Shown: piece by piece, positions 1,382 to 37,204 of the stretch
Layout of the letters: every line of letters begins with the position of its first letter
How positions within the stretch are numbered: position 1 is the first letter of the stretch
Virus record (IMG/VR): IMGVR_UViG_2695420676_000011
DNA from: a virus
Lineage: Duplodnaviria; Heunggongvirae; Uroviricota; Caudoviricetes
Reading direction: 5' to 3' (one strand)
Length of the DNA stretch: 38,652 nucleotides
Translations under genes and position numbers: made by a program
The notes under the pieces: generated by a model
The model's database searches: none
What the model saw: only the letters and a program-made list of their open reading frames with translations
What the model was told of the DNA's origin: nothing

Positions 1382-3067
1382 GTGAATATAAACGTCGCCG
1401 AATTGTTAAATGGGAATTACATTCTGTTATTATTTGTGGTCCTCGCGCTTGGGCTATGTCTCGGAAAGTTACGACTTGGTTCGATCCAACTGGGTAATTC
1501 CATTGGCGTTTTAGTCGTATCGCTGTTATTAGGCCAACAACATTTCAGCATTAACACCGATGCGCTTAATCTTGGCTTTATGCTGTTTATTTTCTGCGTC
1601 GGGGTCGAAGCCGGACCGAACTTTTTTTCCATTTTTTTTCGCGATGGGAAAAATTACCTAATGTTAGCACTGGTGATGGTTGGCAGTGCGCTGGTGATCG
1701 CCTTAGGGTTAGGTAAGCTGTTTGGCTGGGATATTGGCCTGACGGCCGGTATGTTAGCAGGCTCTATGACGTCGACACCGGTGCTGGTCGGTGCTGGCGA
1801 TACACTGCGTCATTTCGGCATGGAAAGCAGGCAGCTCTCACTGGCACTGGATAATCTGAGCCTCGGGTATGCCTTAACCTATTTAATCGGTCTGGTGAGT
1901 TTGATTGTTGGTGCGCGTTACTTGCCGAAATTGCAGCATCAGGACTTACAGACCAGCGCCCAGCAAATCGCCCGCGAACGTGGCCTGGACACTGATGCCA
2001 ACCGTAAGGTTTATTTACCGGTGATCCGCGCCTATCGCGTCGGCCCGGAGCTGGTGGCCTGGACCGACGGCAAAAATCTGCGTGAACTGGGTATTTATCG
2101 ACAAACCGGCTGCTACATTGAACGTATTCGACGTAACGGGATTCTGGCAAATCCAGACGGTGATGCCGTGCTACAAATGGGCGATGAAATAGCGTTGGTA
2201 GGCTATCCCGACGCCCATGCCCGACTCGATCCCAGCTTCCGTAACGGTAAAGAAGTTTTCGATCGTGACCTTCTCGACATGCGTATCGTCACTGAAGAAG
2301 TGGTCGTTAAAAACCATAACGCTGTAGGTAAACGTCTCGCACAACTGAAGTTGACCGATCACGGTTGCTTCCTTAACCGCGTCATTCGTAGCCAGATTGA
2401 GATGCCGATAGATGACAACGTCGTGCTTAACAAAGGTGACGTTTTACAAGTCAGCGGCGATGCCCGCCGCGTAAAAACCATCGCCGATCGCATCGGCTTT
2501 ATCTCGATTCACAGCCAGGTCACTGACCTGCTGGCATTCTGCGCCTTCTTTGTTATTGGGCTGATGATCGGGATGATCACCTTCCAGTTCAGCACATTCA
2601 GTTTCGGCATGGGGAACGCTGCCGGGTTGTTATTCGCCGGAATTATGCTGGGCTTTATGCGTGCTAACCACCCGACCTTCGGTTACATTCCGCAAGGTGC
2701 ATTAAGCATGGTGAAAGAGTTCGGCTTGATGGTGTTTATGGCAGGCGTTGGTCTGAGCGCCGGTAGCGGTATTAATAACGGCCTGGGCGCGATTGGCGGT
2801 CAGATGTTGATTGCCGGATTAATTGTCAGTCTTGTGCCCGTGGTTATCTGTTTCTTGTTCGGTGCTTATGTATTGCGAATGAACCGCGCACTATTGTTCG
2901 GCGCAATGATGGGCGCACGCACCTGCGCGCCGGCAATGGAGATCATCAGTGATACAGCTCGCAGTAACATCCCTGCGCTGGGCTATGCGGGCACCTACGC
3001 AATCGCCAACGTCCTGCTGACGCTGGCAGGGACAATCATCGTCATGGTATGGCCAGGATTAGGATAA
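1382..3067 (+). CDS. ybjL: Putative AAE-family transporter YbjL (two TrkA-C/RCK_C domains)
   Basis: 561-aa ORF with GTG start and N- and C-terminal membrane domains around a soluble core; length and N-terminus match YbjL. Confidence 0.85.
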
Positions 3068-4712: not shown

Positions 4713-5194
4713 GACAGCAGCCCTCCCACCGTTTTACTGATATCGCTTAAGGCAGACGTTGCCGTTTCCTGCAGATTATTCAGTTGCGCACTGAGATCAC
4801 CGAACATATCGGACAGGGATTCATCCACCCGTTTGAGCGACAGGGTGAACTCAATCCGGCGCGGCATACCGTCGCGGAAAAACTCCGTTTTAGTCTGATT
4901 CAGTCCCTCAATCACATACATGCCATAAATCGTGCCGCTGCCTTCAATCAGGGGCCATGCTTTCCCCTGTTCTGCCATCTGCTCCAGTGCCAGCAACGAC
5001 AGCCTGCCACCTGTTATCTCCGGCATAAGAACACCGGAAAGCGTCAGCATGTCGTTGTCCGGTCCCAGAAACTGCGTGGACGGACGTCGGTTTACCCGGC
5101 TGTTTGCCGCATGTCGCCAGCTGCGTTGATACTGCAGCTCCTGATACGGCACGGTGCGCAGCATAAACACGTACAATCCCAGCACCATCATCAT
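4709..5194 (-). CDS. U: Tail protein gpU
   Basis: 161-aa product between T and D, as in P2. Confidence 0.8.
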   Translation of the reverse strand: MMMVLGLYVFMLRTVPYQELQYQRSWRHAANSRVNRRPSTQFLGPDNDMLTLSGVLMPEITGGRLSLLALEQMAEQGKAWPLIEGSGTIYGMYVIEGLNQTKTEFFRDGMPRRIEFTLSLKRVDESLSDMFGDLSAQLNNLQETATSALSDISKTVGGLLS

Positions 5195-6753
5195 GCGTCG
5201 TATCCCCCCTGATCGCTGTAGTTACTCCTGGCTTTTGCCTTCAGCCTACGTTCACGTTCATCAAGCTGGCGGGCCACCTCCCGCGCAATATCCTGCGCAC
5301 TTTGTCCTGGCTGCGTCTGAATGATGATCTGCATCGGTGCCTCAATCCGTTGAACGGGCGGCACAGTGGCTGCACGACTCACCATCGCTTCGCCGCCTTT
5401 CGCGGGAAGTGCCAAAGGGTGCAACGGTGGAAGCTCTGCAGGCGCGGCAGCAACGCCCATCATTCCGGCAACAACGGCAGCCAGTGCAGCTGTATTTCTC
5501 CGGCTGGTCACATTTGCCGGGCCGTTAACAATTTCCGGCCCGTTTTCACCGACGATGCCAAACTGCCCGCGCGGGATATAGCCGCCGCTGTCATACATCC
5601 CCGCAAAGCCATATCCCCATGACGGAAAACCACCCGATGGCATCATCACTTTACCGTCTGCATTCACCGTCGCAGGTTGCTGACGCGTCACGCTTTCCGG
5701 CAGTTTCGCCTTTGCAGCCTCTTTACTGACAATGCCGAGTTTATCCAGCAACCAGGAAACGCCAGATTTCAGGGAGTCCAGCGGATGCATAACCATATTC
5801 AGCCCTTCCGCCAGTGCCTCCCCGAATCGTCGCCCCATTGCCGCTGCGCTCTGCAGTTCGGCAGAAGTCGACTTAACGGGCGTCAGCAGATCAGTAAACC
5901 AGCCCCACAGCGCCTGCACTTTGTCACCAATCCACTGGAACACAGGCTTAAGCGGTTCGAACGCTGCACTGATGGGACCTGCCGCCGCTTTGAATCCTTC
6001 CACCACGCCACCGAGAAATGCGGTGATGGGTTGCCAGTATTTCCAGACAACCAGTGCCACACCCGCCAGTGCAGTAACCACAAGACCTATCGGACTGAGC
6101 AGAGCACCTAACAGACCAGATACGGCATACAGGGCAACGCGCAACATCGCCAGTGGACCAGATGCCAGTACTCGCAGCACCGTGCCTGCGGCAGCCAGCC
6201 CGCCGCGTAGTGCTGCCAGTGGATTCATAAACATCACAGCAACCGCACGTAAACCGGATAATCCAGACCGCAAAAGTGCAACCGGCGCACCTGCTACAGT
6301 TTTCAGGACATTTCCCGTCAGTGATGCCGTGCGGCGCAAAGACGACAACGGCGCAGTAAGTAAACCTGCGGCGTTGCCCGATGAAGCAAGCCCGCGTCGC
6401 AGCAGTGCCAGTGGTGCGCCAGCCAGCCAGGACAACGCGCTGCTGGTTCGAGTTACTGCTGCCGTAACGGAAGATAACGTTTTGATACCCAACACAGAGA
6501 ATCCCAGACGGATCACTGCCAGCGGCCCCAGCACTGCAGCCAGCGCCACCGCTAAGGTGCCGAGGCCGACGGTAACCGCAGCCACAACAGCCGATGCTTT
6601 CATCAGTGTGCCTGTCAGTTCCGGGTTAGCTTCCACCCAGCGACGCAACGCCCCCGTGACGCTTTTCACCGTGTACAGAATATCCATCAGCGGCTGGCGC
6701 AGCGTTTCGCCCAGGCTGCTGAAGGTGTTCTGCGCTCCGGTTTTGACCAGCAA
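5191..6753 (-). CDS. T: Tail tape measure protein gpT, C-terminal segment (separated from N-terminal segment by an in-frame TGA)
   Basis: 520-aa Ala/Gly/Leu-rich ORF beginning at a TTG immediately after the TGA at 6754-6756, in the same frame as 6754..8268. Confidence 0.7.
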   Translation of the reverse strand: MLVKTGAQNTFSSLGETLRQPLMDILYTVKSVTGALRRWVEANPELTGTLMKASAVVAAVTVGLGTLAVALAAVLGPLAVIRLGFSVLGIKTLSSVTAAVTRTSSALSWLAGAPLALLRRGLASSGNAAGLLTAPLSSLRRTASLTGNVLKTVAGAPVALLRSGLSGLRAVAVMFMNPLAALRGGLAAAGTVLRVLASGPLAMLRVALYAVSGLLGALLSPIGLVVTALAGVALVVWKYWQPITAFLGGVVEGFKAAAGPISAAFEPLKPVFQWIGDKVQALWGWFTDLLTPVKSTSAELQSAAAMGRRFGEALAEGLNMVMHPLDSLKSGVSWLLDKLGIVSKEAAKAKLPESVTRQQPATVNADGKVMMPSGGFPSWGYGFAGMYDSGGYIPRGQFGIVGENGPEIVNGPANVTSRRNTAALAAVVAGMMGVAAAPAELPPLHPLALPAKGGEAMVSRAATVPPVQRIEAPMQIIIQTQPGQSAQDIAREVARQLDERERRLKAKARSNYSDQGGYDA

Positions 6754-8268
6754 TCACTGCGCAGAAAGTGAATCCTTGTTAATGTCGGATTCTTTCTGCA
6801 TGGAGCCGAGCGCATCATTGCCCGCTGTCAGTTTTAACTGACGCTGCAGTTCCGGCAGGTTGTTTGCCAGTTTCGCCGCGTCATCGCCAAACTCTTTACC
6901 AAACAACATAGTCATGGCAGACAGGCGCTTGTCCTGCGGCAGCGCGTTTACCTTCTCCAGCACGCGCTGGATGGTTCCCATCGCATCCTTCGTCATCTGC
7001 TTTTCAATCACTTCAGGATTGAGTTTCAGCAGATTCATCCCTTCAAAGAAACTCTTGCTTTGCATGGTGGCAATGGACAATTCACGCACCATCGCGTTTG
7101 CTGCACTGGCTGCAACCTCTGGCGCAGCGCCCAGTGTCAGGAAGGTGGAACCCAGCGCCGCCGCTTTACGATAATCCAGACGGTCAGCCACACCGCCCAG
7201 ACGTTGCATCACATCAATGATGTCTGCCCCTTTCGACATGGCGTTATCATCCAGATAGTTCAGCGCATCACCGAGCTGTTCAATATTGCGGGTGGGGATT
7301 TTGTAGAGCTGGGCGATTTTCCCCAGACTTTCTGACAGTTCATCCGCTGGCAGCTCAAAGGCTGTTGCCGCCTTTGCTGCCGTACTGGCGAAGGCCAGCA
7401 GGTCACGTTTCTGATCTTCCCAGCTGTCGTCAGGGTTTGCGACGTTCATGCGCGCACCACCTTCAACCAGTGCAGCGAAGTCCACCGCACCGTTTTCCAT
7501 CGGCAACTGTTCGCTGGCAGCCTTGATGGCATCCTGCATTTCATAAAAACGTGCAGTGCGGTTGCCATTATCGTCACGCAGACCATTGACCTGCTTTGCC
7601 ACACCTTTCATGGCATCTTCCATGCTGGTATAGCTTTTTACTGCCGCCATCACTGGCGCACCCATTGCCAGCCCTGCAGCCGTGGTGGTGGCTCCGGCAC
7701 CTGCAATACGATCACGCACCTCCAGCGAACGGGCATAACTGGCACGCGCTGCATTCATCCTGCGCTGAGCTTCCCCCAGTCGCTTCAGCCGCGCCTCCTG
7801 TTTCGAAAGTTCCTGGTTATAACGTGATGTTTCACGGGCTAAACGGGCAGTTGCTCCCGCATCGTCTTTCGCAGAAATTCCCGCCCGGTACAGTTCAGCA
7901 CGCACAAGCGCCGTCTGCTGCTGCAGCTTTTTCTGGCGTTCTTCCAGGCGCTGAACAGCCAGCCGTTGACGGCCCAGAGCAACAACCTGACGTTGCGAAG
8001 GCGGCCCCATCGCTCCCAGTTCCTGACTGAGCAAATTTGCACGCTGGCGGGCATAGTTCAGCCTGTCGCCTAATTTCTGATTTTCTGCCTGCAGCTTTCG
8101 GAAGCTGTCCAGACTGCTCCCGGCCTGATCAAGCTGCTTTATTGCATCGCGGGATTTTTTGACAGCAGCAGCCAGTTCTCTTGAACTGGCCTGCGCAGAT
8201 CGAAATGGACGGGTGAGCTTGTCAACCGCATTAAGAATGACCTGCAGACGCAGGTTGTTATCACTCAT
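6754..8268 (-). CDS. T: Tail tape measure protein gpT, N-terminal segment (ends at in-frame TGA)
   Basis: 504-aa coiled-coil-like product starting MSDNNLRLQ; its ATG overlaps the E' stop as in P2. Confidence 0.75.
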   Translation of the reverse strand: MSDNNLRLQVILNAVDKLTRPFRSAQASSRELAAAVKKSRDAIKQLDQAGSSLDSFRKLQAENQKLGDRLNYARQRANLLSQELGAMGPPSQRQVVALGRQRLAVQRLEERQKKLQQQTALVRAELYRAGISAKDDAGATARLARETSRYNQELSKQEARLKRLGEAQRRMNAARASYARSLEVRDRIAGAGATTTAAGLAMGAPVMAAVKSYTSMEDAMKGVAKQVNGLRDDNGNRTARFYEMQDAIKAASEQLPMENGAVDFAALVEGGARMNVANPDDSWEDQKRDLLAFASTAAKAATAFELPADELSESLGKIAQLYKIPTRNIEQLGDALNYLDDNAMSKGADIIDVMQRLGGVADRLDYRKAAALGSTFLTLGAAPEVAASAANAMVRELSIATMQSKSFFEGMNLLKLNPEVIEKQMTKDAMGTIQRVLEKVNALPQDKRLSAMTMLFGKEFGDDAAKLANNLPELQRQLKLTAGNDALGSMQKESDINKDSLSAQ

Positions 8269-8697
8269 CGTTGGCCCCGCTTCTCTGAATCGCTTTATAC
8301 CGCCATTCCAGCACTTCGGTCAGCGGCATAACGTCAGTAACGGATGGCGGCCAGTGAAAAATGGTGGCGATATCTGCCACCAGATCGTCAACCGTCAGGC
8401 TGTCGGTAAACCGGCAAGCACCGACTTCTTCAACAAAAAAGTGACAACCTCAACCGACATGGCAGTGAGATCTGCCGGGTCCATCTCTGCAATTTCCTGT
8501 GCAGTCAGTGCCGGACTGGAGATGCGGGGGATCACGGTCATCATCGCGTTTACATCCATATCCATAATGGCCTGCAGGCGTGTACCGCGCAGCGCACCGG
8601 ACTGCGGTTTACGCAGCACAATTTCGGTGATTTCTGTTTTACCGCGCTTGATGGGGGTATCCAGTTGAATGGTCTTTTCAGTCTGCTTATCGCTCAT
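8261..8697 (-). CDS. E': gpE+E' fusion made by -1 programmed ribosomal frameshift
   Basis: Reading from the slippery site in the -1 frame gives an open extension ending at TGA 8261-8263, overlapping the T start codon. Confidence 0.6.
8395..8697 (-). CDS. E: Tail assembly chaperone gpE
   Basis: 100-aa ORF directly upstream of T with a T_TTT_TTG slippery heptamer near its 3' end. Confidence 0.85.
   Translation of the reverse strand: MSDKQTEKTIQLDTPIKRGKTEITEIVLRKPQSGALRGTRLQAIMDMDVNAMMTVIPRISSPALTAQEIAEMDPADLTAMSVEVVTFLLKKSVLAGLPTA
8434..8440 (-). other. Slippery heptamer T_TTT_TTG for the E/E' -1 frameshift
   Basis: Minus-strand TTTTTTG located 13 codons before the gpE stop. Confidence 0.6.
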
Positions 8698-10591: not shown

Positions 10592-11164
10592 TCAGGGGGA
10601 TTCATTGATCTTATTTGCCGGAAATTTTCTATAAATGGTAGAAACGCCTACATCAAAAATCAGTGCAATACGCTGTATTGATTCTCCGGCCTCGAGTAAA
10701 CGCCCAATCTGTGCCCACTGTTCGGTGGTCAACTTAGGACGGCGTCCACCTACTCTGCCTTTGGCACGAGCTGCAGCCAGCCCTGCCCTGGTACGTTCAA
10801 CTATCAGTTCGCGTTCCATTTCAGCCAGGGCACCCATGACATGAAAAAAGAAACGGCCCATTGGGGTACTGGTATCAATACTGTCAGTCAGGCTTCTGAA
10901 ATTCACACCACGCTGGCGCAACTCTTCTATCAGCGTAACAAGATGCCGCATACTGCGCCCCAACCTGTCCAGCTTCCAGACAACCAGCGTGTCTCCTGCC
11001 GATAGTGTCCTGAGTAGTTTTTTCAGCCCCGGTCTGTCGGACTTAGTGCCACTGATTTTGTCCTCAAAAATCCGCTCACATCCCGCGCAGTTCAGTGCAT
11101 TACGTTGCAAATCGGTGTTCTGGTCATTTGTTGACACGCGTACATAGCCAATAAGCATGATCAT
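10592..11164 (-). CDS. Serine DNA invertase (Hin/Gin/Cin/Pin family)
   Basis: 190-aa product with the IGYVRVSTNDQ catalytic-serine N-terminus and a C-terminal HTH. Confidence 0.9.
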   Translation of the reverse strand: MIMLIGYVRVSTNDQNTDLQRNALNCAGCERIFEDKISGTKSDRPGLKKLLRTLSAGDTLVVWKLDRLGRSMRHLVTLIEELRQRGVNFRSLTDSIDTSTPMGRFFFHVMGALAEMERELIVERTRAGLAAARAKGRVGGRRPKLTTEQWAQIGRLLEAGESIQRIALIFDVGVSTIYRKFPANKINESP

Positions 11165-11185: not shown

Positions 11186-11521
11186 ATGATGCCAGTTAGC
11201 TGGTACCTCTGCATTTTCTTAAACGTTGGTTTTGGAGAAGGTGCTAACTGGGTTATGTTACCTGGAGGAATGATAATTCAGCGTGTTTATCTTGGATTTC
11301 CTATTGGCACCAATGCAAGACACATAACTTTCCCCCGGTCGTTTACAACAACGAACTATTCCATCTCAATTAACTGGAATGATATCGGTACTGTAACAAC
11401 TGAAACACAATCACCAGCAAATGTGGCGGTTGTTCATCAAACAAAATCATTAACAGGGGCCAGCATCTGGCAGGCAGGTCCCGGGGGATTTAATGTGGAC
11501 ATTATAGCGGTGGGGTATTGA
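11186..11521 (+). CDS. Alternative (silent) tail-fibre C-terminal cassette
   Basis: Plus-strand ORF running out of the left crossover site (FGEGANW junction), lacking its own N-terminus. Confidence 0.55.
11216..11244. repeat. Invertase crossover site (hix/gix-like), left
   Basis: ttcttaaacgttggttttggagaaggtgc; the 17-nt core ggttttggagaaggtgc recurs inverted at 12955-12971 with one mismatch. Confidence 0.6.
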
Positions 11522-11522
11522 T

Positions 11523-11951
11523 ATGTACGTATGGAGCGCTAAATCAAATGGCTTTTTCCCCATATCGGAGAAAGAAAAATTTGAGGCATCAGGTCTGTGG
11601 CCTGATGATGGTGTAATAGTCAGTGAGGAAGAACATAAAAAGTTATTTATGGATATTCCACCAGGAAAACAGATTGGAACACTGAATGGAAAACCAGCAC
11701 TGATAGATATTCCTCAGCCGACCAAAAAGGAATTAATAGCTATTGCTGAAGTTAAAAAATCCCAATTACGGGAAAAAGCTGACAGTGAAATATCCTGGCG
11801 TCAGGATGCTGTTGATGCTGATATCGCAACTGATGAAGAAACTTCAACTCTCACCGAATGGAAGAAATACCGTGTGCTGCTGATGCGTGTTGATACTTCA
11901 ACAGCACCCGATATTGAATGGCCTACGCCTCCGGCAGTTCAGGCCAGATGA
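11523..11951 (+). CDS. Alternative tail fibre assembly chaperone (Tfa/gpG family), inverted cassette
   Basis: 142-aa ORF immediately after the silent fibre cassette; C-terminus ([14 protein letters not shown]) parallels that of the minus-strand Tfa. Confidence 0.6.
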
Positions 11952-12516
11952 CATCCGGCGCGGTGCTGGTATCTGTTGCCGTCACCGCGTCAATGTAATC
12001 CAGCACGGTGTTAAGTCGGGTTGTTTCTGCCTGAGTCAGTTTCCGTCCGGCCTGTAATTTCAGCTGAATCAGACTAATGGAAGCCATTACTGCATCAATC
12101 AGTGACTGGCGCTGTGCTTCTGCTGCTTCTACTGCGGCGTTATGCTGTGCCTCAGTATCTGTCACCCATTTCTCACCATCCCATTTATCATATGGCGTTA
12201 ACGGTGAAAGCGTGACATAACCGTTTTTGATGGCACCGATATAATCCACTGTAACAGCTGCGCCATTTTCTGTTGAGTAAACAGTCTCATTGCGATGGTC
12301 TTCTTCATGGCTCCATCCCTTACCCGTAAATACTGCCACTTTCCCCGGAATGTTTTCGCCCGGGTCAATACCAGTGGAACAGGCGGGCATACTTACGCCA
12401 GTATTAATATATTCATCAGACCAGCCCGTATACTCAGATGTTTCAGCATCATAATAAAAACAACGCATATCGCCCGGCACTGTGGCCAGCCCATTTTCAT
12501 CAAAAACAGGTTTCAT
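11923..12516 (-). CDS. G: Tail fibre assembly chaperone (gpG/Tfa family), expressed cassette
   Basis: 197-aa ORF directly downstream of the tail-fibre gene, ending [15 protein letters not shown]. Confidence 0.75.
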
Positions 12517-13541
12517 TATTTAGCCCTCACCAGAAAGTTAAATGCAATATTTCGCGGTCTGACAGCAACAAAATTCACACCATCACCCACAGAGTTACTG
12601 GTGAAATTAAATCGTGAAAATCCTGGCTGATTTCCGGCGATGCCATCATGAAAGTTAATTGCGTGTCCCGCACCTCCGCCTATATTCCCGGCAAACTGAG
12701 AAAAGTTTGTAGCTTCCTGCCAGCTTAATAATTCGCGACCACCGTCTGCACCTCGCCCGTCATCCCAGATACGAATGAAATCACCGCGGGCTTCAGGTAA
12801 TACCAGCGAAGGAAATACTTTCGCCAGCACAGGATAATCAGTGGCAGAGAATTTCGCGCCGTTGAACTTCAAAAACACCATACTGGACCAGCTGTCGATT
12901 ACAGTATTTGGCATTGCAGCGGACGGCCAGAAGAACGGAACGCCAATAGCTGGAGCACCTTCTCCCAAACCAAGGTATGTGAGAAGACCAGCTACATCCT
13001 TTCCACTCAAATTGGTAAGCGTATTGTCCAGCGGTTGTTTACCTGCCAGCGCATTAAGCATTGTCGTGGCAAAGTTCGGATCATTCCCCAGTGCCGCCGC
13101 CAGTTCGTTCAGTGTATCCAGTGCAGCAGGTGCAGAACCCACCATTCCTGCAATCGCCGATTTCACAAAAGCCGTAGTGGCAATCTGTGTATTGTTGACC
13201 GACTGCGCCGCCGTGGGGGCTGTTGGCGTTCCGGTGAGTGCCGGACTCGACAACGGTGCTTTTAGTGCCAGCGCATTGTTAATGGTGGTACTGAAATTCG
13301 GATCATTGTTAATGGCTGCGGCTATTTCTTTCAGCGTGTCCAGCGTGGCTGGCGCACCATTAATAAGGGCCGTCAGTGCCGCCTGTACAAACGCAGTGGT
13401 CGCAACCTGCGTGGTATTATTCCCCGCCGCTGGCGTTGGCGCTTTGGGGGTTCCGGTAAATGTCGGGCTGGCTTTTGGCGCGTACTGTGAATGCGGGTCC
13501 GGTGCGGCAAGATGTTTTGCCATCTGATCATCCGCGTACAC
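12516..13541 (-). CDS. H: Tail fibre protein gpH, C-terminal segment (frameshifted relative to N-terminal segment)
   Basis: 341-aa repeat-rich ORF with no proper start, abutting 13544..14020 in a different frame. Confidence 0.7.
   Translation of the reverse strand: MYADDQMAKHLAAPDPHSQYAPKASPTFTGTPKAPTPAAGNNTTQVATTAFVQAALTALINGAPATLDTLKEIAAAINNDPNFSTTINNALALKAPLSSPALTGTPTAPTAAQSVNNTQIATTAFVKSAIAGMVGSAPAALDTLNELAAALGNDPNFATTMLNALAGKQPLDNTLTNLSGKDVAGLLTYLGLGEGAPAIGVPFFWPSAAMPNTVIDSWSSMVFLKFNGAKFSATDYPVLAKVFPSLVLPEARGDFIRIWDDGRGADGGRELLSWQEATNFSQFAGNIGGGAGHAINFHDGIAGNQPGFSRFNFTSNSVGDGVNFVAVRPRNIAFNFLVRAK
12955..12985. repeat. Invertase crossover site, right (inside the tail-fibre gene)
   Basis: Reverse complement gives ggtttgggagaaggtgc; encodes the GLGEGA junction of the tail fibre. 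Confidence 0.6.
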
Positions 13542-13543
13542 CT

Positions 13544-14020
13544 TCAGCTCCAGTGCCTTGTCTCCACATACTTGCGGGTTGCCAGCACTACAGCAGGGTC
13601 GATTTTCAGGGTGATATTGTCCGTGCTGCTGGTAATCAGCACCATGCGCACGGTCTGAGTGCGCCCGCTACCTTCAGCCAGTTGCGGCTTATAGCTTTCC
13701 GGGCAGTTGCCCACGGCAATCAATGCCCCGGACTCATCAAACAAGCCCACTTCACGTATCCACCAACCGCCCTCGTTTTCAGGGATCACCTGTTCGGCAA
13801 TAATCTGGCTGCTGTTCTGCGGGTCGATATAAAGCATATTCAGCGCAGCCCGGCGTTTCTCATTTACCAGTGCCGTCTGCTTTGCGTCCGGCGTTGGCAA
13901 TACTCCACCGCCATCGCCCACCGCCATATGGGTAATTTTTAGCGGCACACCGAGCGCGGCGGCGCTGGCAAGTTTCGCCGCGCCAATATCCGTCAGCAGG
14001 GTATAAAATTTTGTGCTCAT
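13544..14020 (-). CDS. H: Tail fibre protein gpH, N-terminal segment (truncated by apparent 1-bp deletion)
   Basis: 158-aa product starting MSTKFYTLLTDIGAAKLA, resembling the P2 gpH N-terminus; ends ...YVETRHWS* where P2 has YVDDK. Confidence 0.7.
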   Translation of the reverse strand: MSTKFYTLLTDIGAAKLASAAALGVPLKITHMAVGDGGGVLPTPDAKQTALVNEKRRAALNMLYIDPQNSSQIIAEQVIPENEGGWWIREVGLFDESGALIAVGNCPESYKPQLAEGSGRTQTVRMVLITSSTDNITLKIDPAVVLATRKYVETRHWS

Positions 14021-14622
14021 GGATTCACTCTCATTGTGTCAATAACATGGACCGCCCCGCCTTCATGCGCGGTGCCACCGGAAATAATCGTTTCGTTGAT
14101 ATACGGATAGATCGTGATTTCTTCGCCAAGATAGCTGGCGGCTCCCACCCAATGCGGGCCGCTGGTCTGCAGATTGATGGACATGCCGATCATGTGGCGG
14201 CTACATGGTTTGGCATCGCTTATCAGTCGCTCAAGTTCCAGATAGGTATCTTCAGTGATGCCCTGGTCCTGCACGCCGATATCCAGGCGAAACGTGCCCG
14301 GTGTTTCTCCGGTCTGCCACCACTCAATAATGCGGATCAGGAATCCGAACGGCTCCACCACCCGCCGCACGGCACTGGTGGTCCCTTTATGCTGATGAAT
14401 ATAAAAAGCATCCTTCACCACCTGGCGCTTGACGCTTTCTGTCCAGCCCTCGTCCCAGCGATCCACAGAGAACGCCCAGGCGAGATAAGGCAGGAAACTG
14501 ACCGGACAGGTTGCCGGATTCCACAAGTCACGAAGCGGCACCTGCAGATCAGAAATCCCGCTGCAGGTTTGCGCCAGTCGGCGCTCCAGTGGTGTTGAAC
14601 CCGGTGGCAGCAAACTATTCAT
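14017..14622 (-). CDS. I: Baseplate protein gpI
   Basis: 201-aa ORF in the P2 gpI position, overlapping neighbours by a few bases. Confidence 0.8.
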   Translation of the reverse strand: MNSLLPPGSTPLERRLAQTCSGISDLQVPLRDLWNPATCPVSFLPYLAWAFSVDRWDEGWTESVKRQVVKDAFYIHQHKGTTSAVRRVVEPFGFLIRIIEWWQTGETPGTFRLDIGVQDQGITEDTYLELERLISDAKPCSRHMIGMSINLQTSGPHWVGAASYLGEEITIYPYINETIISGGTAHEGGAVHVIDTMRVNP

Positions 14623-21486: not shown

Positions 21487-22299
21487 TCAGCAATTGGTCA
21501 GAGTGTCAGCGGGGGCGTTACCGCCTGTTGCACGTTGGCGGTAGTCCTGGCGGCTGTCTTCATGACTCAGCTTATTCACCAGTTCGTTAAAGGCGGTCTG
21601 CTGTGCCTGCAGGGCAGTCTCCAGCTCAGACAGGGATTTTTCGGTACGCACACTCAGGTTTTGCTGCTCAGTGGCGACCAGCTCCACGGCCTTATGCACA
21701 TCAGAGAACCGGGCGTCATCGGACTGCTCTTTTTTGGTAAACAGCGCCGTGACACGGGCAAACAGGGACGGTTTGTCCTCCTGGATTTCTTCCAGTTCGA
21801 TCACCGTTTCCTCTGCAGCGGTAAAAAGATTGGCGGGATTCTGCTTGCGGTTTGCCAGCGGGTTATGGGCTGCACTGGCGCTGAATGTCAGCATTTCCGT
21901 ACCCAGACTGGCAGGGTCATCAGTGGCAGCCAGGCCGACCAGGTAGGCTTTGCCCGTATCAGCAAACTTCGGGCTGACTTCCATAGAGGTGAATAATTTC
22001 TGGCCTTTTTTCACCAGTTCCACCAGGGACTCCGTTGGCTCAACGTCGGCATACAGCGCCATCTTGCCTGCCAGCGGACCTTCCGTGATTTCTTCAGCAA
22101 ACAGCGCCGTCACCTTGCCGTAGCGGTTAAAGGTGCTGTCCGGCAGATAAGACTTGATGTGCTCAAGGTTAATCAGCGCGGTATACACCGCCGGGTTGTA
22201 GCTGGCTGCCATCTGTTCCAGCCATTCACGCTGGATTTCGCGTCCGTCGGTGGTGGCACCTTCCACCCCGATGCGAAAACGCTTTGTTTTCACTGTCAT
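21487..22299 (-). CDS. O: Capsid scaffolding protein gpO
   Basis: 270-aa product with the FRIGVEGATTDGREI N-terminus typical of P2 gpO. Confidence 0.85.
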   Translation of the reverse strand: MTVKTKRFRIGVEGATTDGREIQREWLEQMAASYNPAVYTALINLEHIKSYLPDSTFNRYGKVTALFAEEITEGPLAGKMALYADVEPTESLVELVKKGQKLFTSMEVSPKFADTGKAYLVGLAATDDPASLGTEMLTFSASAAHNPLANRKQNPANLFTAAEETVIELEEIQEDKPSLFARVTALFTKKEQSDDARFSDVHKAVELVATEQQNLSVRTEKSLSELETALQAQQTAFNELVNKLSHEDSRQDYRQRATGGNAPADTLTNC

Positions 22300-25279: not shown

Positions 25280-26020
25280 TTACTCAATAGGTTCAAACTC
25301 ATCCTGAGGAATCAGCGTCGATTGACAGGCTTGGCTTAGTACTCCTGATAATTTACATAATAACCGATAGTTATGAGGAGCATCATCGCTAATCTTTTCG
25401 ACCGTTAAAGTGATTGATTTTGGATCATCCAATAACATCTTCTTGATATCATTACTTAAATACCTAGGGCAGTAACCAACGATTTCAGCTGGTTTATCTG
25501 CACGAACGACAACAGCATCCCCATCGTATTCATTTTGAAGATCCAAGCAAAGACGCAAAATTTGCCCCGGTTTCAATTCAGATACACGAGCATTAGCTAA
25601 GCTATTTAAGTAACCAAGTCCATGTAAGAAGAAAAAATGCTCAAAGTTACCATCAGAATCAACATCAATTTTTTTGAAAATCTGCAGCTGATCAGTGCTT
25701 CGTAAGCCTCCCGAGCGAGCAAGAATATCGATAGGATTTACCTTATCTTCTTCAAATCCAAGCCATTTAATGAAACTCGGATACTCTGGACGTCTCGGTG
25801 ATAAAAGGCGATTTTTAAAAAGAGGAAACAATTCTTCCGAAACATAAGTTTCACGAACATCACTCATGCCGCTAAACTTTGTAAATTTAGTAGATTTGAG
25901 AGCACCTTTGGTATACCTGAAAACATACCCCGATTTGCGCTCTTGCAAGTTACCAACAACATGCCAGTCTCTGGTATCTGGTGCCTGCCATGCGACGTAA
26001 ACGGAGTTTGTATTAGTCAT
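25280..26020 (-). CDS. HIRAN-domain protein, putative partner of the HipA-like kinase
   Basis: 246-aa ORF overlapping the upstream kinase gene by 4 bp; C-terminal ~100 aa resemble a HIRAN domain (ILRLCLDLQNEYDGDAVVVRAD...EIVGYCPRYLSNDIKKML); AT-rich. Confidence 0.55.
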   Translation of the reverse strand: MTNTNSVYVAWQAPDTRDWHVVGNLQERKSGYVFRYTKGALKSTKFTKFSGMSDVRETYVSEELFPLFKNRLLSPRRPEYPSFIKWLGFEEDKVNPIDILARSGGLRSTDQLQIFKKIDVDSDGNFEHFFFLHGLGYLNSLANARVSELKPGQILRLCLDLQNEYDGDAVVVRADKPAEIVGYCPRYLSNDIKKMLLDDPKSITLTVEKISDDAPHNYRLLCKLSGVLSQACQSTLIPQDEFEPIE

Positions 26021-26931
26021 TCTAGTAACCTTCTGCGATTTTCCATTACCATTAACGTTGCAAATCTACGTGCGCTGTCGGATATACACGATGAAGGCAC
26101 TTGGTTAAACACATCTGTAATGGAATCTTCTGTTAAAACGCTCAACTTACCTAACCAATGGTCGCGAGCGGCAACTCTCCCTTCAACTGCATGTTGAAAT
26201 GCTTCAACGGTCAGCAAGGGCTTTTTATCAGTTTTTGCTTTGAATAGCTCAGAGCGAGCTTTTCTTACAAAACATGGGATTTGTCGATTTTTATCTTTAG
26301 TATTAAGCCGTTCGTTACGCTCATCATCTAACATCTCCCTTCCTAAACTAGCGGCATGATCGTATGTTGGACACAAAAACTGCTCACCAGTTTCATTGTT
26401 AAGCATGATCGCCCAATTTTCATGATGGCGATCTTGATTACTCACAAGTGCATCGAGCATCAAATATCCACAAAATACATCTGCTGCATTTAGCCCGGTT
26501 AGATCATATACACTCGGAGGAGGCTTGATAGATTCCCTATCTAAACAACCCAATACCCTTGTGACAGTGTGTTCTCTGACCCTTACCGGCTTTTCCCCGG
26601 CTTGTAAAGGCCCAGGATAATCGAATGTCGAACTGTGAAGCACTTCATTTCCCATTACCATCCGGAAACCAGATGGAATGATATTCTGAGTCACCACACC
26701 GAATCGACCATTGTATCGCGCCAAATCATAGCTAGCATGTGGAATGTTAAGCAAATGACATAACTCAGCAGCACACTTTTCAGACCAATGCTCGCCAGTA
26801 CCTGGCCTAGAGTACTTAAACAACTGCAAATTTACAGTGTCATCGGAGAAATAGAACCAAAACTTCTCTTTGGTTCCTAACTGTTCAAGATCGTTAGCTA
26901 CGGGGCTAAGCTCTACCAATTGGTATGGCAT
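26017..26931 (-). CDS. HipA-like serine/threonine kinase (kinase core only)
   Basis: 304-aa product with a HipA-type catalytic loop VSNQDRHHENWAI and downstream CPTYDHAASLG; AT-rich; first gene of a two-gene operon. Confidence 0.6.
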   Translation of the reverse strand: MPYQLVELSPVANDLEQLGTKEKFWFYFSDDTVNLQLFKYSRPGTGEHWSEKCAAELCHLLNIPHASYDLARYNGRFGVVTQNIIPSGFRMVMGNEVLHSSTFDYPGPLQAGEKPVRVREHTVTRVLGCLDRESIKPPPSVYDLTGLNAADVFCGYLMLDALVSNQDRHHENWAIMLNNETGEQFLCPTYDHAASLGREMLDDERNERLNTKDKNRQIPCFVRKARSELFKAKTDKKPLLTVEAFQHAVEGRVAARDHWLGKLSVLTEDSITDVFNQVPSSCISDSARRFATLMVMENRRRLLE

Positions 26932-27102: not shown

Positions 27103-27526
27103 TGCCCGCTTTATGTAGTGGTTTTCATGCACCTGCATGACATAAGCAAAAGCACGCCAGTTCTGGCTGACTTCAGCAAAAACGATCCTCAAACGATCAT
27201 GCGATCTCATGCGTCATAGTCATGCGCTGCCAAGGGAAGCGTAAATCCGTATCTGAATGACTGCTGAAAAGCGAATCATACGGGTTTACAAAGATGAAAG
27301 TTCGCTGTGAGCGAGAAGCGAACCTTGCAACTTTGTTGGCACAGTTTTAACACCAATTTTTTGAGGATAGCTAGAAAACTTGTGGCATAAAGGATCAGTT
27401 TCCCGATCGAACTTTTTATCAAGAAGGGCTCATAGCAATCGCCAGAAGAAGTGATGTTAAAGTATTGAGCTCGGCGTTAAGATTAAATAAATTACAGACT
27501 AATCCAATGTTTTGTGGAAGGATAAG

Positions 27527-28570
27527 ATGGCAGTCAAGCGCGCATACTACGGTAACGATAGTGACCGAGACTACTTAGAGCGGATATTTCAGTCAGCTAA
27601 CATTAACTTTCTCATCGGATCAGGTGCATCCCTCCCAGCGATTAAAGTACTGGGGACAATCGAAACGGATCTTCAGCAGCTTATTAATGATGAACAGGAA
27701 GATGAATACTTAAGGATGGCAGCTGACTTTTTGTCAGATGTTTGGCTACCTCATGAATGCATGTTGAAGCGCGGCTACGGCACCCCCTTCGCACCTCAGG
27801 TGATCACCGATTTGGAATGTACCCGTGCAAATTATGATGCATTTATGTCTTCACTGGAAAAGATACTGACCCGCCGCCGAACTGGCCTACTTCCGAGGCG
27901 TATTAACGTTTTTACAACTAATTATGATTTATTCATCGAAGAAGCTGCCACACGTAATAACAATATTCTTTTTAATGATGGATTCAATAGAAGAGCAAGT
28001 ATTTTGGGAGATGCGGAATTTGATGCGGGTAGCTTTAATCATTCTGTAAGTGCAACCGGAAATCTGTATAATTATAAAGTTGAGCTTCCTACTGTTAACC
28101 TTATAAAACTTCATGGTTCGCTCTCTTGGCAGCATTCTAAAGGGAAAATCATTTATCGTATTGCAGATATTAAGCCGCTTGACTTTCCCACCCTAGCCGA
28201 AATGAAAGGATGGGTACTTGCTCATGCACTTATTCTTCCACGTAAGGAGAAGTTTAAAGAGACTCTACTACAGAACGTTTATTATGATTTACTGAGAACC
28301 TATTCCAACGAGCTTGATAAAGAAGCAACTTTACTAATTGTCTTTGGGTTCTCGTTTGCTGATGAGCACATTGAAACGATAACTAAAAAAGCCCTGCGCA
28401 ACGCCACCCTGAAGCTACTGATCTTTGCTTTCGATGAGGCCAGTGTTAACGGCTTTATGGAGAAATTTCGGGATTACTCAAACGTAGAGATTATTTATCG
28501 GCCGGGAAGAAATGTTGATTTTCCGGTAATGAATAACATTATCACGTGCTATCTGGGAGGCTCGAGATGA
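27527..28570 (+). CDS. SIR2-family NADase of a SIR2-HerA anti-phage system
   Basis: SIR2-like motifs NFLIGSGAS, TTNYD and KLHGS; ATG at 27527 with RBS (ORF track start 27512 is TTG); stop overlaps the HerA start (ATGA). Confidence 0.8.
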   Translation: MAVKRAYYGNDSDRDYLERIFQSANINFLIGSGASLPAIKVLGTIETDLQQLINDEQEDEYLRMAADFLSDVWLPHECMLKRGYGTPFAPQVITDLECTRANYDAFMSSLEKILTRRRTGLLPRRINVFTTNYDLFIEEAATRNNNILFNDGFNRRASILGDAEFDAGSFNHSVSATGNLYNYKVELPTVNLIKLHGSLSWQHSKGKIIYRIADIKPLDFPTLAEMKGWVLAHALILPRKEKFKETLLQNVYYDLLRTYSNELDKEATLLIVFGFSFADEHIETITKKALRNATLKLLIFAFDEASVNGFMEKFRDYSNVEIIYRPGRNVDFPVMNNIITCYLGGSR

Positions 28571-30426
28571 GCAGGCATTTTACTGAAGAGGAAGCGGTGC
28601 TCCGTATAGGCGAAGTCTGTGAGGTTTCTGGACGCGCTGTGACAATTTTGGTCGATAAAAACAAAAATCTCAGTGACTTGTTTTATCAGGGAAAAGTTCT
28701 AAGAAATGTATCAGTGGGTAGCTTCATTGAGATCAAAAAAGGTTTCATGAGCCTGATCGGCAAGGTTGAAGCGGAACGAATCATTGAGGAAAAACATCTC
28801 GCTGGGAGCGGCAGTGATGCCTGGCGATATCGGCGATACCTGACCTCTACTCTTACGGGTTACATTGATCGTACTGGTTGCTTCATTGGTGGTTCGCGTG
28901 AACTACCTCTCATCGGCAATGAAGTCTTCGTGGTAACTGAAGAGATGATACAAACGGTTCATCAGATAGCTAATGCAGACGAAACTGTAATGAGGTTTAC
29001 TCGTACAGATCTTGAAGATATTGAAATTGCACTACCAATCAATGGTCTTATTAATTCCCACATTGCCATTTTCGGTAATACAGGCAGCGGAAAGTCAAAT
29101 ACCCTAGCCGCGCTATACAAAGCAGGTATTGCCCAAGTTAAACATATTCTCGGCAACCACTTTAGTGAAAGATGCAAATTTATTCTATTCGACTTTAATG
29201 GAGAATATACTGCCCCACGCTGTATTACTGACGAGAAGACGGTTTATAATCTCAACACGCACCATGCAAATGGTGACAAACTTCCTCTACCCAGAGAGGT
29301 TCTACTTGAGCATGATATGCTCTCAGTTCTAACCGATGCAACAGACAAAACACAGAAACCTTTCCTGAAGAGAGTTCTTGAGTTTCGCAAGAAAGTGATG
29401 ACTGCTGATAATCCTCTTGAGTTTATGCGCAATATCCTGAAGAAAAAAGTCAGACAAAATCTCTTTAGTAGCGACAAACCCAAATGCGATACTATAAATC
29501 AGTTTCTTAGCCCAATTTTCAAAGATGACCCAGAACTTATATCTGATCTTGAGTATCATTCAACTGCATATAAATGGAAATTGAGGGGTGGTAGTATTTT
29601 CAATACAGAAGCTGATACTGAGCGCTCCTATCTATTCAGTCTTGCAAGCAATTTTTTATTTAAAACTGATATGATTGAAGAACTGTTGGACTTTATGTAC
29701 TTACAGTTAATACAGGAATATTTATCTAACAAGTCTAACCCTGAACATATTTCACCAGTTATAAATAGAATGAGTGCTAACCGTAAAGATATAGCCAAAA
29801 TATTTGATACTTCCGGACAGTCTGACTTTTGGGGTGAACATAATTTCACGGTTGTGAATCTAAATATGGTTAATATAACCATGAAAAAAACGCTTCCTCT
29901 TTTGATAGCCAAGTGGGCTTACAATATGAAGAAAATGTCTACAGAGAAATCTACACTGCACATCATTATAGATGAAGCCCACAATATTTTGTCTAATACT
30001 TCTTTTCGGGAAACGGAAAGTTGGAGAGATTATCGTCTGGAAACTTTTGAGGAAATCATAAAGGAGGGGAGAAAATTTGGAGTTTTTATCACAATTTCCA
30101 GTCAACGCCCTAATGATATATCGTCGACAATCATATCCCAAGCACACAATTATTTTATTCATCGCCTTATTAATCAGAATGATCTGTACGCAATTGAAAA
30201 ATCAGTATCATATATAGATCGACTGACTGAAGAGTCGATTCCAACGCTATCTACAGGAACCTGTATTTTTAGTGGTATCGTCTGCCCCATGCCGCTCAAA
30301 TTAAGGGTAGCTGAACTTCCAATTGAAGAAAAACCTAAGAGTAATACTATTTCCTTCAACGATTTAATACCTGAGAGGCTGGGAGAGGATGACCAGAGCG
30401 ACTACGTAATAACCAGCCCTCACTAA
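28567..30426 (+). CDS. HerA-like (FtsK/HerA superfamily) ATPase of a SIR2-HerA anti-phage system
   Basis: Walker A IAIFGNTGSGKSNT and Walker B LHIIIDEAHN; GGGAGG RBS; translationally coupled to the SIR2 gene. Confidence 0.85.
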   Translation: MSRHFTEEEAVLRIGEVCEVSGRAVTILVDKNKNLSDLFYQGKVLRNVSVGSFIEIKKGFMSLIGKVEAERIIEEKHLAGSGSDAWRYRRYLTSTLTGYIDRTGCFIGGSRELPLIGNEVFVVTEEMIQTVHQIANADETVMRFTRTDLEDIEIALPINGLINSHIAIFGNTGSGKSNTLAALYKAGIAQVKHILGNHFSERCKFILFDFNGEYTAPRCITDEKTVYNLNTHHANGDKLPLPREVLLEHDMLSVLTDATDKTQKPFLKRVLEFRKKVMTADNPLEFMRNILKKKVRQNLFSSDKPKCDTINQFLSPIFKDDPELISDLEYHSTAYKWKLRGGSIFNTEADTERSYLFSLASNFLFKTDMIEELLDFMYLQLIQEYLSNKSNPEHISPVINRMSANRKDIAKIFDTSGQSDFWGEHNFTVVNLNMVNITMKKTLPLLIAKWAYNMKKMSTEKSTLHIIIDEAHNILSNTSFRETESWRDYRLETFEEIIKEGRKFGVFITISSQRPNDISSTIISQAHNYFIHRLINQNDLYAIEKSVSYIDRLTEESIPTLSTGTCIFSGIVCPMPLKLRVAELPIEEKPKSNTISFNDLIPERLGEDDQSDYVITSPH

Positions 30427-36489: not shown

Positions 36490-36634
36490 AAGGCAACATT
36501 CCTTCTAGATATGGCTTGTGGCGAGCCGTTGTTTGTCGTGATTAGTAGTGAAGGCTCCAAAAGAACACTTCTGGTTCAACTTTAAGATCGCTTTTGGAAT
36601 CTGTCAACGAATTTTGGATTTCTTTGGAGGACTT

Positions 36635-37204
36635 GTGGATTTCAATAGCGGCGGTAAGAAAGCCATAGAACGTTTAGTTGAAGCATATGGGTTCGGTACC
36701 CGTCAGGCTCTATGTGATCATTTAGGTGTTTCTAAGAGCACCATGGCAACGCGCTATATGCGTGATATTTTTCCAGCAGATTGGGTAATCCAGTGCGCCC
36801 TTGAAACGGGCACCTCGCTTAATTGGCTAACAACAGGGCATGGTTCAAAGCAAGCATCAGCAAATACAAATACTATAGAAGTAGAAAAATATTTATTGTC
36901 TGATGGAGCATTGCAGAAAGACGGTTTTTATATTTTTGATAAGGGATTTCTACCCTCTACGTTTAAAAAACCTTTTGTCATCACAGATAACAATTCTGAA
37001 TTTATTTGTGATAAAGAATTTGATGATATACGTGATGGTAAATGGGTAATAAGTATTGATGGCGAAATAACTATCCGTGACATTACTCGTTTACCCGGTG
37101 GAAGAATCTTCGTCGAGGGTGGAAACAGAGCCTTCGAATGCAAGATAGAAGACATTGAAATAATTGGTAAAATTATAAGTTTAACAGTCAAGTATGTTAA
37201 ATAG
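36635..37204 (+). CDS. cI: CI-like immunity repressor (phage 186 type)
   Basis: Product resembles 186 CI (EAYGF...CALETG...); start placed at in-frame GTG 36635 with GGAGG RBS rather than 36548. Confidence 0.7.
   Translation: MDFNSGGKKAIERLVEAYGFGTRQALCDHLGVSKSTMATRYMRDIFPADWVIQCALETGTSLNWLTTGHGSKQASANTNTIEVEKYLLSDGALQKDGFYIFDKGFLPSTFKKPFVITDNNSEFICDKEFDDIRDGKWVISIDGEITIRDITRLPGGRIFVEGGNRAFECKIEDIEIIGKIISLTVKYVK

Follow-up and report, generated by a model that had tools for sequence, protein, structure and literature searches.

Does the interrupted reading frame in the tail fibre gene of this prophage record a true mutation, or does it reflect an assembly error, a recoded message, or a fibre made from two separate genes? 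We addressed this in a window, meaning the whole stretch of DNA of 38,652 nucleotides that was analyzed, which holds a P2-like (Peduoviridae) prophage of an E. coli isolate. The late genes of the prophage are carried on the minus strand. The host gene ybjL (1382-3067) stands on one side of it and the phage integrase on the other, and the window ends with the stop codon of the integrase. Our best explanation, with a probability of about 0.85, is that this isolate alone has recently and genuinely lost one T from codon 153 of a gpH-type fibre gene, most simply as a neutral second hit in this P2-like prophage.

The fibre gene and its intact relatives

The fibre gene was identified on the minus strand at 12516-14020, with gpI (Tail_P2_I, 14017-14622) directly before it and a Caudo_TAP fibre assembly gene after it. 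At the lesion it reads GTGGA followed immediately by GACAAG, whereas all relatives read GTGGATGACAAG. A single T, that of codon 153 (GAT, Asp), is absent between window bases 13563 and 13562 (GTGGA being 13567-13563; deletion site 13562-13563, minus strand), and its loss turns GTGGATGACAAG into GTGGAGACAAG. When 161 nt spanning the site were aligned with the prophage of E. coli ATCC 8739 and the record "Escherichia phage 500465-1", 1 difference appeared in 162 columns, the T gap itself, in a context (GGA-T-GAC) with no homopolymer. The preliminary description, made from the letters alone, had proposed a 1-bp deletion in this gene with the base lost after GTGGA at 13562/13563, and the alignment to intact relatives bore out that exact position. 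Its further statement that one base added after GTGGA restores KYVDDKALELK agreed with P2 gpH and all close relatives, and the YVDDK that it gave for P2 was right, P2 gpH having ATQDYVDDKIAE aligned to the restored ATRKYVDDKALE.

In the window, the minus strand at 13580-13540 reads ACC CGC AAG TAT GTG GAG ACA AGG CAC TGG AGC TGA, that is, TRKYVETRHWS and a stop. The predicted truncated product (13544-14020, minus strand) is 158 aa long, made up of 152 native residues plus ETRHWS, and it ends in ATRKYVETRHWS at the stop codon TGA (13544-13546). By ORF translation and profile match it contains the PF12571 domain (N-terminal Phage_tail_fib / tail-collar fibre domain) only, at residues 1-150 with 150/150 profile positions covered (E = 5.9e-66). 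Domains of the PF12571 type anchor the fibre to the baseplate in P2 and in R-type pyocin fibres. The adjacent frame continues at the lesion with GDKALELKVYADDQMAKHLAAPDPH and DKALELKVYADDQMAKHLAAPDPH and runs about 1 kb on, up to the stop at 12516. This out-of-frame remainder (12516-13561, minus strand, from the reading frame) holds the shaft repeats and the currently joined receptor-binding end, and the 341-aa minus-strand ORF that the ORF caller opens with a GTG start at 13541 is a mechanical call. The single ORF that joins the N-terminal domain to the shaft and the receptor-binding end is broken at codon 153, and the whole gene at 12516-14020 encodes 501 aa only with the T put back.

The nearest well-known counterpart is P2 gpH (NP_046775.1), which occupies the same place after gpI and before the fibre assembly gene and has the same N-terminal domain. 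BLASTP of the restored protein against it gave 51% identity over 381 aa (E = 9e-95), reaching beyond the N-terminal domain. The two genes differ in that the window gene is broken by the 1-nt deletion and the P2 gene is whole, and in that the C-terminal end of the window gene is different and lies on an invertible segment, whereas P2 lacks such a segment and carries fun(Z) there.

Among close relatives, the intact gene is widespread. The restored 501-aa protein was found letter for letter on 8 contigs of the public collection, and 3 accessions of the exact protein share the accession series of the source assembly. The intact sister fibre (P0061; for example CTS73220.1, CTT42252.1, CTZ14163.1) is identical at the amino acid level to the restored window gene but has the T and forms one ORF. 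When the restored sequence was used as a homology query, more than 100 different proteins with the full length of 501 aa were recovered at 98-100% identity, each encoded by a single ORF. The identical gpI is encoded in 10 distinct neighbourhoods, all of which read through RKYVDD(K/E) in one ORF of 385-518 aa. At the nucleotide level, the best 40 complete-genome hits to a 721-nt query all span 722 nt. A 61-nt probe centred on the lesion matched 636 complete-genome E. coli records, and the deletion occurs in 0 of the 636; no record reached 99% identity, 600 of the 636 fell in the 95-99% band, and each of the 8 matches listed aligned 61 nt against 62 nt with one gap.

These comparisons bear directly on whether the N- and C-terminal parts of the fibre are naturally two genes in this phage group, as the two CDS annotated by gene callers in the source assembly (CTV73132.1, CTV73102.1) might indicate. 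Every intact homologue examined is one gene of 425-518 aa that starts with PF12571, and P2 gpH is likewise a single gene with this start. The 10 neighbourhoods and the more than 100 501-aa homologues rule out a natural two-gene organization, to which we assign practically no probability, and the deletion reading stands, although separate genes at this boundary had been named in the preliminary description as the finding that would overturn it. Compared with intact orthologues, the window has an indel whose length is not a multiple of three; there is a premature stop, and the frame further downstream still codes for the orthologous protein. To judge from its sequence, the gene is a pseudogene of the P2 gpH-type (PF12571) tail fibre family.

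Origin of the deletion and fate of the two frames

The exact 158-aa product was found on two contigs only, in the NCBI assembly GCA_001284985.1 (CYDJ01000009.1, E. coli) and in the Logan assembly of run ERR178167. The former matches the window at 100% identity over 20.5 kb and the latter does so over 11.1 kb; the two entries may come from the same sample or from different ones, and their pipelines differ (NCBI vs Logan). The accession series of ERR178167 suggests Illumina data, and Illumina consensus indels are rare in non-homopolymer contexts such as GGA-T-GAC. An assembler artefact is unlikely because the separate Logan assembly of ERR178167 shows the same deletion, and the deletion is presumably present in the reads.

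The probability that the isolate truly has the T and an intact 501-aa fibre, and that the gap arose in sequencing or assembly, is low, yet it is the largest among the competing explanations. A consensus error would likewise be expected in a single isolate with otherwise identical sisters, as is the case for this deletion, and draft scaffolds of the same project series hold mis-joined pieces and runs of N around the invertible segment. Weighing against an error are the recovery of the same deletion by two pipelines (CYDJ01000009.1 and Logan ERR178167) over 11 kb of identical sequence, the N count of 0 in the window, and the position of the lesion outside a homopolymer, homopolymers being the usual sites of indel errors.

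If the deletion is real, the two frames might still be used together. A split but usable fibre would require reinitiation at GTG 13541, so that a free 341-aa shaft and tip joins the 158-aa stub. The layout at the break has some appeal for this, with the stop TGA (13544-13546), a Shine-Dalgarno-like GGAG (6 nt upstream of GTG 13541), and the GTG all within 15 nt, and with the break falling at the end of the PF12571 domain. However, the arrangement occurs in no relative, all of which have a single ORF; a promoter scan found no minus-strand promoter near the lesion for independent expression of the downstream part; the two parts would have to associate non-covalently; and the tape measure nonsense codon described below would stop tails anyway. 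A working split fibre is thus improbable in our view, clearly more so than an artefact. There is a small chance of some reinitiation at GTG 13541, which would yield a free C-terminal fragment without the anchor domain, because GGAG-N6-GTG adjoins the stop codon of the stub. Still less probable is that programmed -1 ribosomal frameshifting or other recoding joins the frames, as in P2 E/E'. With a 124-nt overlap between the frames, a shift by -1 would bring translation back into the downstream frame, but a scan of that overlap identified no slippery heptamer of the form X XXY YYZ, and the relatives all have a single frame with the extra T, the two-frame arrangement not being conserved. Rescue by recoding is unlikely because of the missing slippery heptamer in the overlap together with the missing minus-strand promoter nearby.

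Under the preferred reading, the loss of the T would shift the frame into a stop six codons on and leave a 158-aa PF12571 stub, and the shaft and the receptor-binding part would not be made.

The invertible fibre switch

We identified next to the fibre gene the parts of a Din-family switch, with an adjacent serine invertase, inverted crossover sites of which one lies in the fibre gene, and exchange at a central dinucleotide. The serine DNA invertase (Resolvase PF00239 plus HTH_7 PF02796, by profile match) is at 10592-11164 on the minus strand, and an invertase homologue of 188 aa maps to 10595-11158. By inverted arm match, the right crossover site lies inside the fibre gene at 12954-12985 (minus strand TTCTCACATACCTTGGTTTGGGAGAA), and the left one lies at the start of the alternative fibre end, at 11214-11245. 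Profile matches placed between and beside them the tail fibre assembly protein (Caudo_TAP) that pairs with the currently joined end (11923-12516, minus strand), the alternative fibre C-terminal end (Gp53-like_C; 11186-11521, plus strand), which joins the constant part after inversion, and a second tail fibre assembly protein (Caudo_TAP; 11523-11951, plus strand) that pairs with the alternative end.

The predicted flipped fibre, in which the constant part and the alternative end are joined at the central TT, is 447 aa long and was found exactly on 25 contigs, which confirms the anatomy of the switch. Both orientations exist in nature, given the exact 501-aa and 447-aa forms, and two contigs that are otherwise near-identical to the window (L018 and L019) are flipped, L018 with its recombinant joint at the central TT. 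The ERR178167 Logan contig breaks off at 12967, exactly the final base that both orientations of the segment have in common, which suggests a mixture of the two among the reads of that run. Apparent large inversions of the tail region in L019 (at 8351-8361) and in sister contig L038 (at 11538) were rejected, their junctions being runs of N at scaffold gaps. These junctions join the gpU/gpD region to the fibre region and are probably mis-scaffolding around the invertible segment.

The Mu G segment with Gin, the P1 C segment with Cin, and the e14 P segment with Pin have the same adjacent serine invertase, the same imperfect inverted crossover sites with a central TT/AA, and the same constant N-terminal part with two alternative C-terminal ends, each having a Caudo_TAP chaperone. 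The window differs from these switches in the frameshift in its constant part, so that switching changes no expressed fibre. Because the frameshift is upstream of the crossover site, in the constant region, both switchable versions of the fibre would be lost. The invertase appears to be still active though the fibre gene is dead, flipping a segment without an expressed product.

The tape measure stop and the rest of the prophage

The preliminary description had also placed a stop in the tape measure gene, and this proved real. The gene (5191-8268, minus strand) has an in-frame stop at codon 505, where W505 is changed from TGG to TGA (6754-6756) and relatives have TGG/Trp. A TTG directly follows the stop, and gene callers start a 520-aa second half there. 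The TGA is common to at least 8 further contigs from other samples (L011, L012, L016, L018, L019, L020, L023, and L024), which are 99.97-100% identical to the window where they overlap it. Two 4484-nt Logan contigs (L014 and L015, from SRR35898252 and ERR1100982) start on the invertase side and stop at the end of tape measure codon 504, one base short of the codon mutated in the window; these ends may mark an assembly-graph branch at a polymorphic site. In contig L021 (SRR3240968), which is 1.2% diverged, the same tape measure codon is TAG, an independent nonsense hit, found through a look-up of the exact 504-aa product that returns only truncations at that codon and is therefore ascertainment-biased.

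Sister contigs allowed the order of the two lesions to be considered. Over 12,788 nt, the T is all that separates contig L040 (GCA_050520485.1) from the window. Contig L038 (GCA_001286445.1), which belongs to the same sequencing project series, combines an intact fibre with TGG at the tape measure codon. It otherwise shows 1-2 differences from the window, a base at 22282 and another within the crossover arm at 11233, its two pieces being joined by a scaffold gap and linked only as the same assembly. Both lesions would be very young because sister assemblies differ from the window by 0-3 bases over 11-13 kb. The tape measure stop probably arose before the fibre deletion because it is present in at least 8 further samples. 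Parsimony favours a start from an intact prophage, next a tape measure stop that spread in a clonal group, and last a fibre frameshift in one isolate.

The annotation of P2 lists the tape measure as an essential protein of the tail, and in the window it is truncated. We infer on this ground that tails fail to assemble, that the prophage makes no infectious particles, and that losing the fibre frame was selectively neutral. The nonsense codon, already there when the T was lost, should by itself block tail assembly, and the simplest view would make the fibre frameshift a neutral second hit in a module no longer selected for virion production.

We compared the window by tblastn with the closest prophage locus from a complete genome (NZ_CM151382), using as queries all 50 CDS of that locus and of the host genes beside it. 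The head, lysis, tail, baseplate, replication, lysogeny, and shared cargo genes with a counterpart are full length, mostly at 94-100% amino acid identity, and apart from the tape measure and the fibre, no other stops or frameshifts were found by tblastn in the genes with a window counterpart. The reference CDS DUF3850, GmrSD, and HEPN gave no tblastn hit in the window. The element is an almost intact prophage with two young lesions. The preliminary description had seen in these lesions a tail function that decays while the cargo modules are retained; the two tail lesions are real, but cargo is not preferentially retained because all other genes with a reference counterpart are full length too. 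We also rejected the idea that two hits in the tail exceed chance, since the tail module makes up about 39% of the prophage coding DNA and two hits there by chance have a probability of about 0.15.

Several further differences between the window and its relatives were observed. Two defence-type cargo modules, at 25280-26931 and 27512-30426, occupy a hotspot between the portal gene Q and the replication gene A, a location that agrees with the P2 hotspot of PMC9122126. They are a HipA-like plus HIRAN pair (PADLOC candidate system PDC-M03) and a SIR2 plus HerA pair, the latter with near full-length, very strong PADLOC matches and absent from the closest complete-genome prophage. The CI-type repressor of the window (36548-37204, 218 aa) is of a diverged type, sharing only about 50% identity with its counterpart in the closest complete-genome prophage. 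That prophage has in addition GmrSD and HEPN between repressor and integrase (L006 43266-45988), a variable spot where the window has neither. The scaffold gene O (21487-22299) has an in-frame 21-nt length difference, 270 aa vs 277 aa in several relatives, and the 270-aa form also occurs in sisters L038 and L040. In the host DNA, nfsA (nitroreductase) is split into calls of 120 and 117 aa, which share a frame and are separated by 6 nt, in the source assembly (L017 18252-18974, on the source contig just outside the left end of the window) and in ERR4783774 (L020 11216-11938), and it is intact at 240 aa in other sister assemblies. Loss of nfsA is associated with nitrofuran resistance.

Selection rather than drift might also account for the two lesions, the host lineage disarming the virion module stepwise and keeping the carrier of the defence systems (PDC-M03, SIR2+HerA) along with its lysogeny functions. 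Two of the 3 point differences from L038, the nearest fully intact sister, are knock-outs, when about 3.7% of random substitutions give a stop, and the TAG of L021 is an independent hit at the same codon; these hints come from tiny numbers, in a window that may have been picked for its lesions, and the L021 look-up is biased. We therefore consider selection doubtful, slightly more so than a sequencing artefact.

The preferred reading, a true loss of one T in a tail module already disabled, amounts to ordinary early prophage pseudogenization with nothing new in anatomy. Defective prophages in general share with it premature stops in essential virion genes and a rest of the element that is kept; compared with them, the window is at a very early stage, with two lesions only, no deletions or IS insertions, and near-identical intact sisters. 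The finding has little significance beyond annotation, where the 158-aa and 341-aa CDS should be treated as a single frameshifted pseudogene of the fibre and the prophage is to be scored as probably unable to make infectious particles. As an example of how prophage inactivation begins, it is small and clean. Public assemblies that lie a handful of bases apart contain the ancestral allele, the intermediate with only the tape measure stop, and the double mutant, and the case may serve as a natural control for studies of defence-carrying P2-like prophages.
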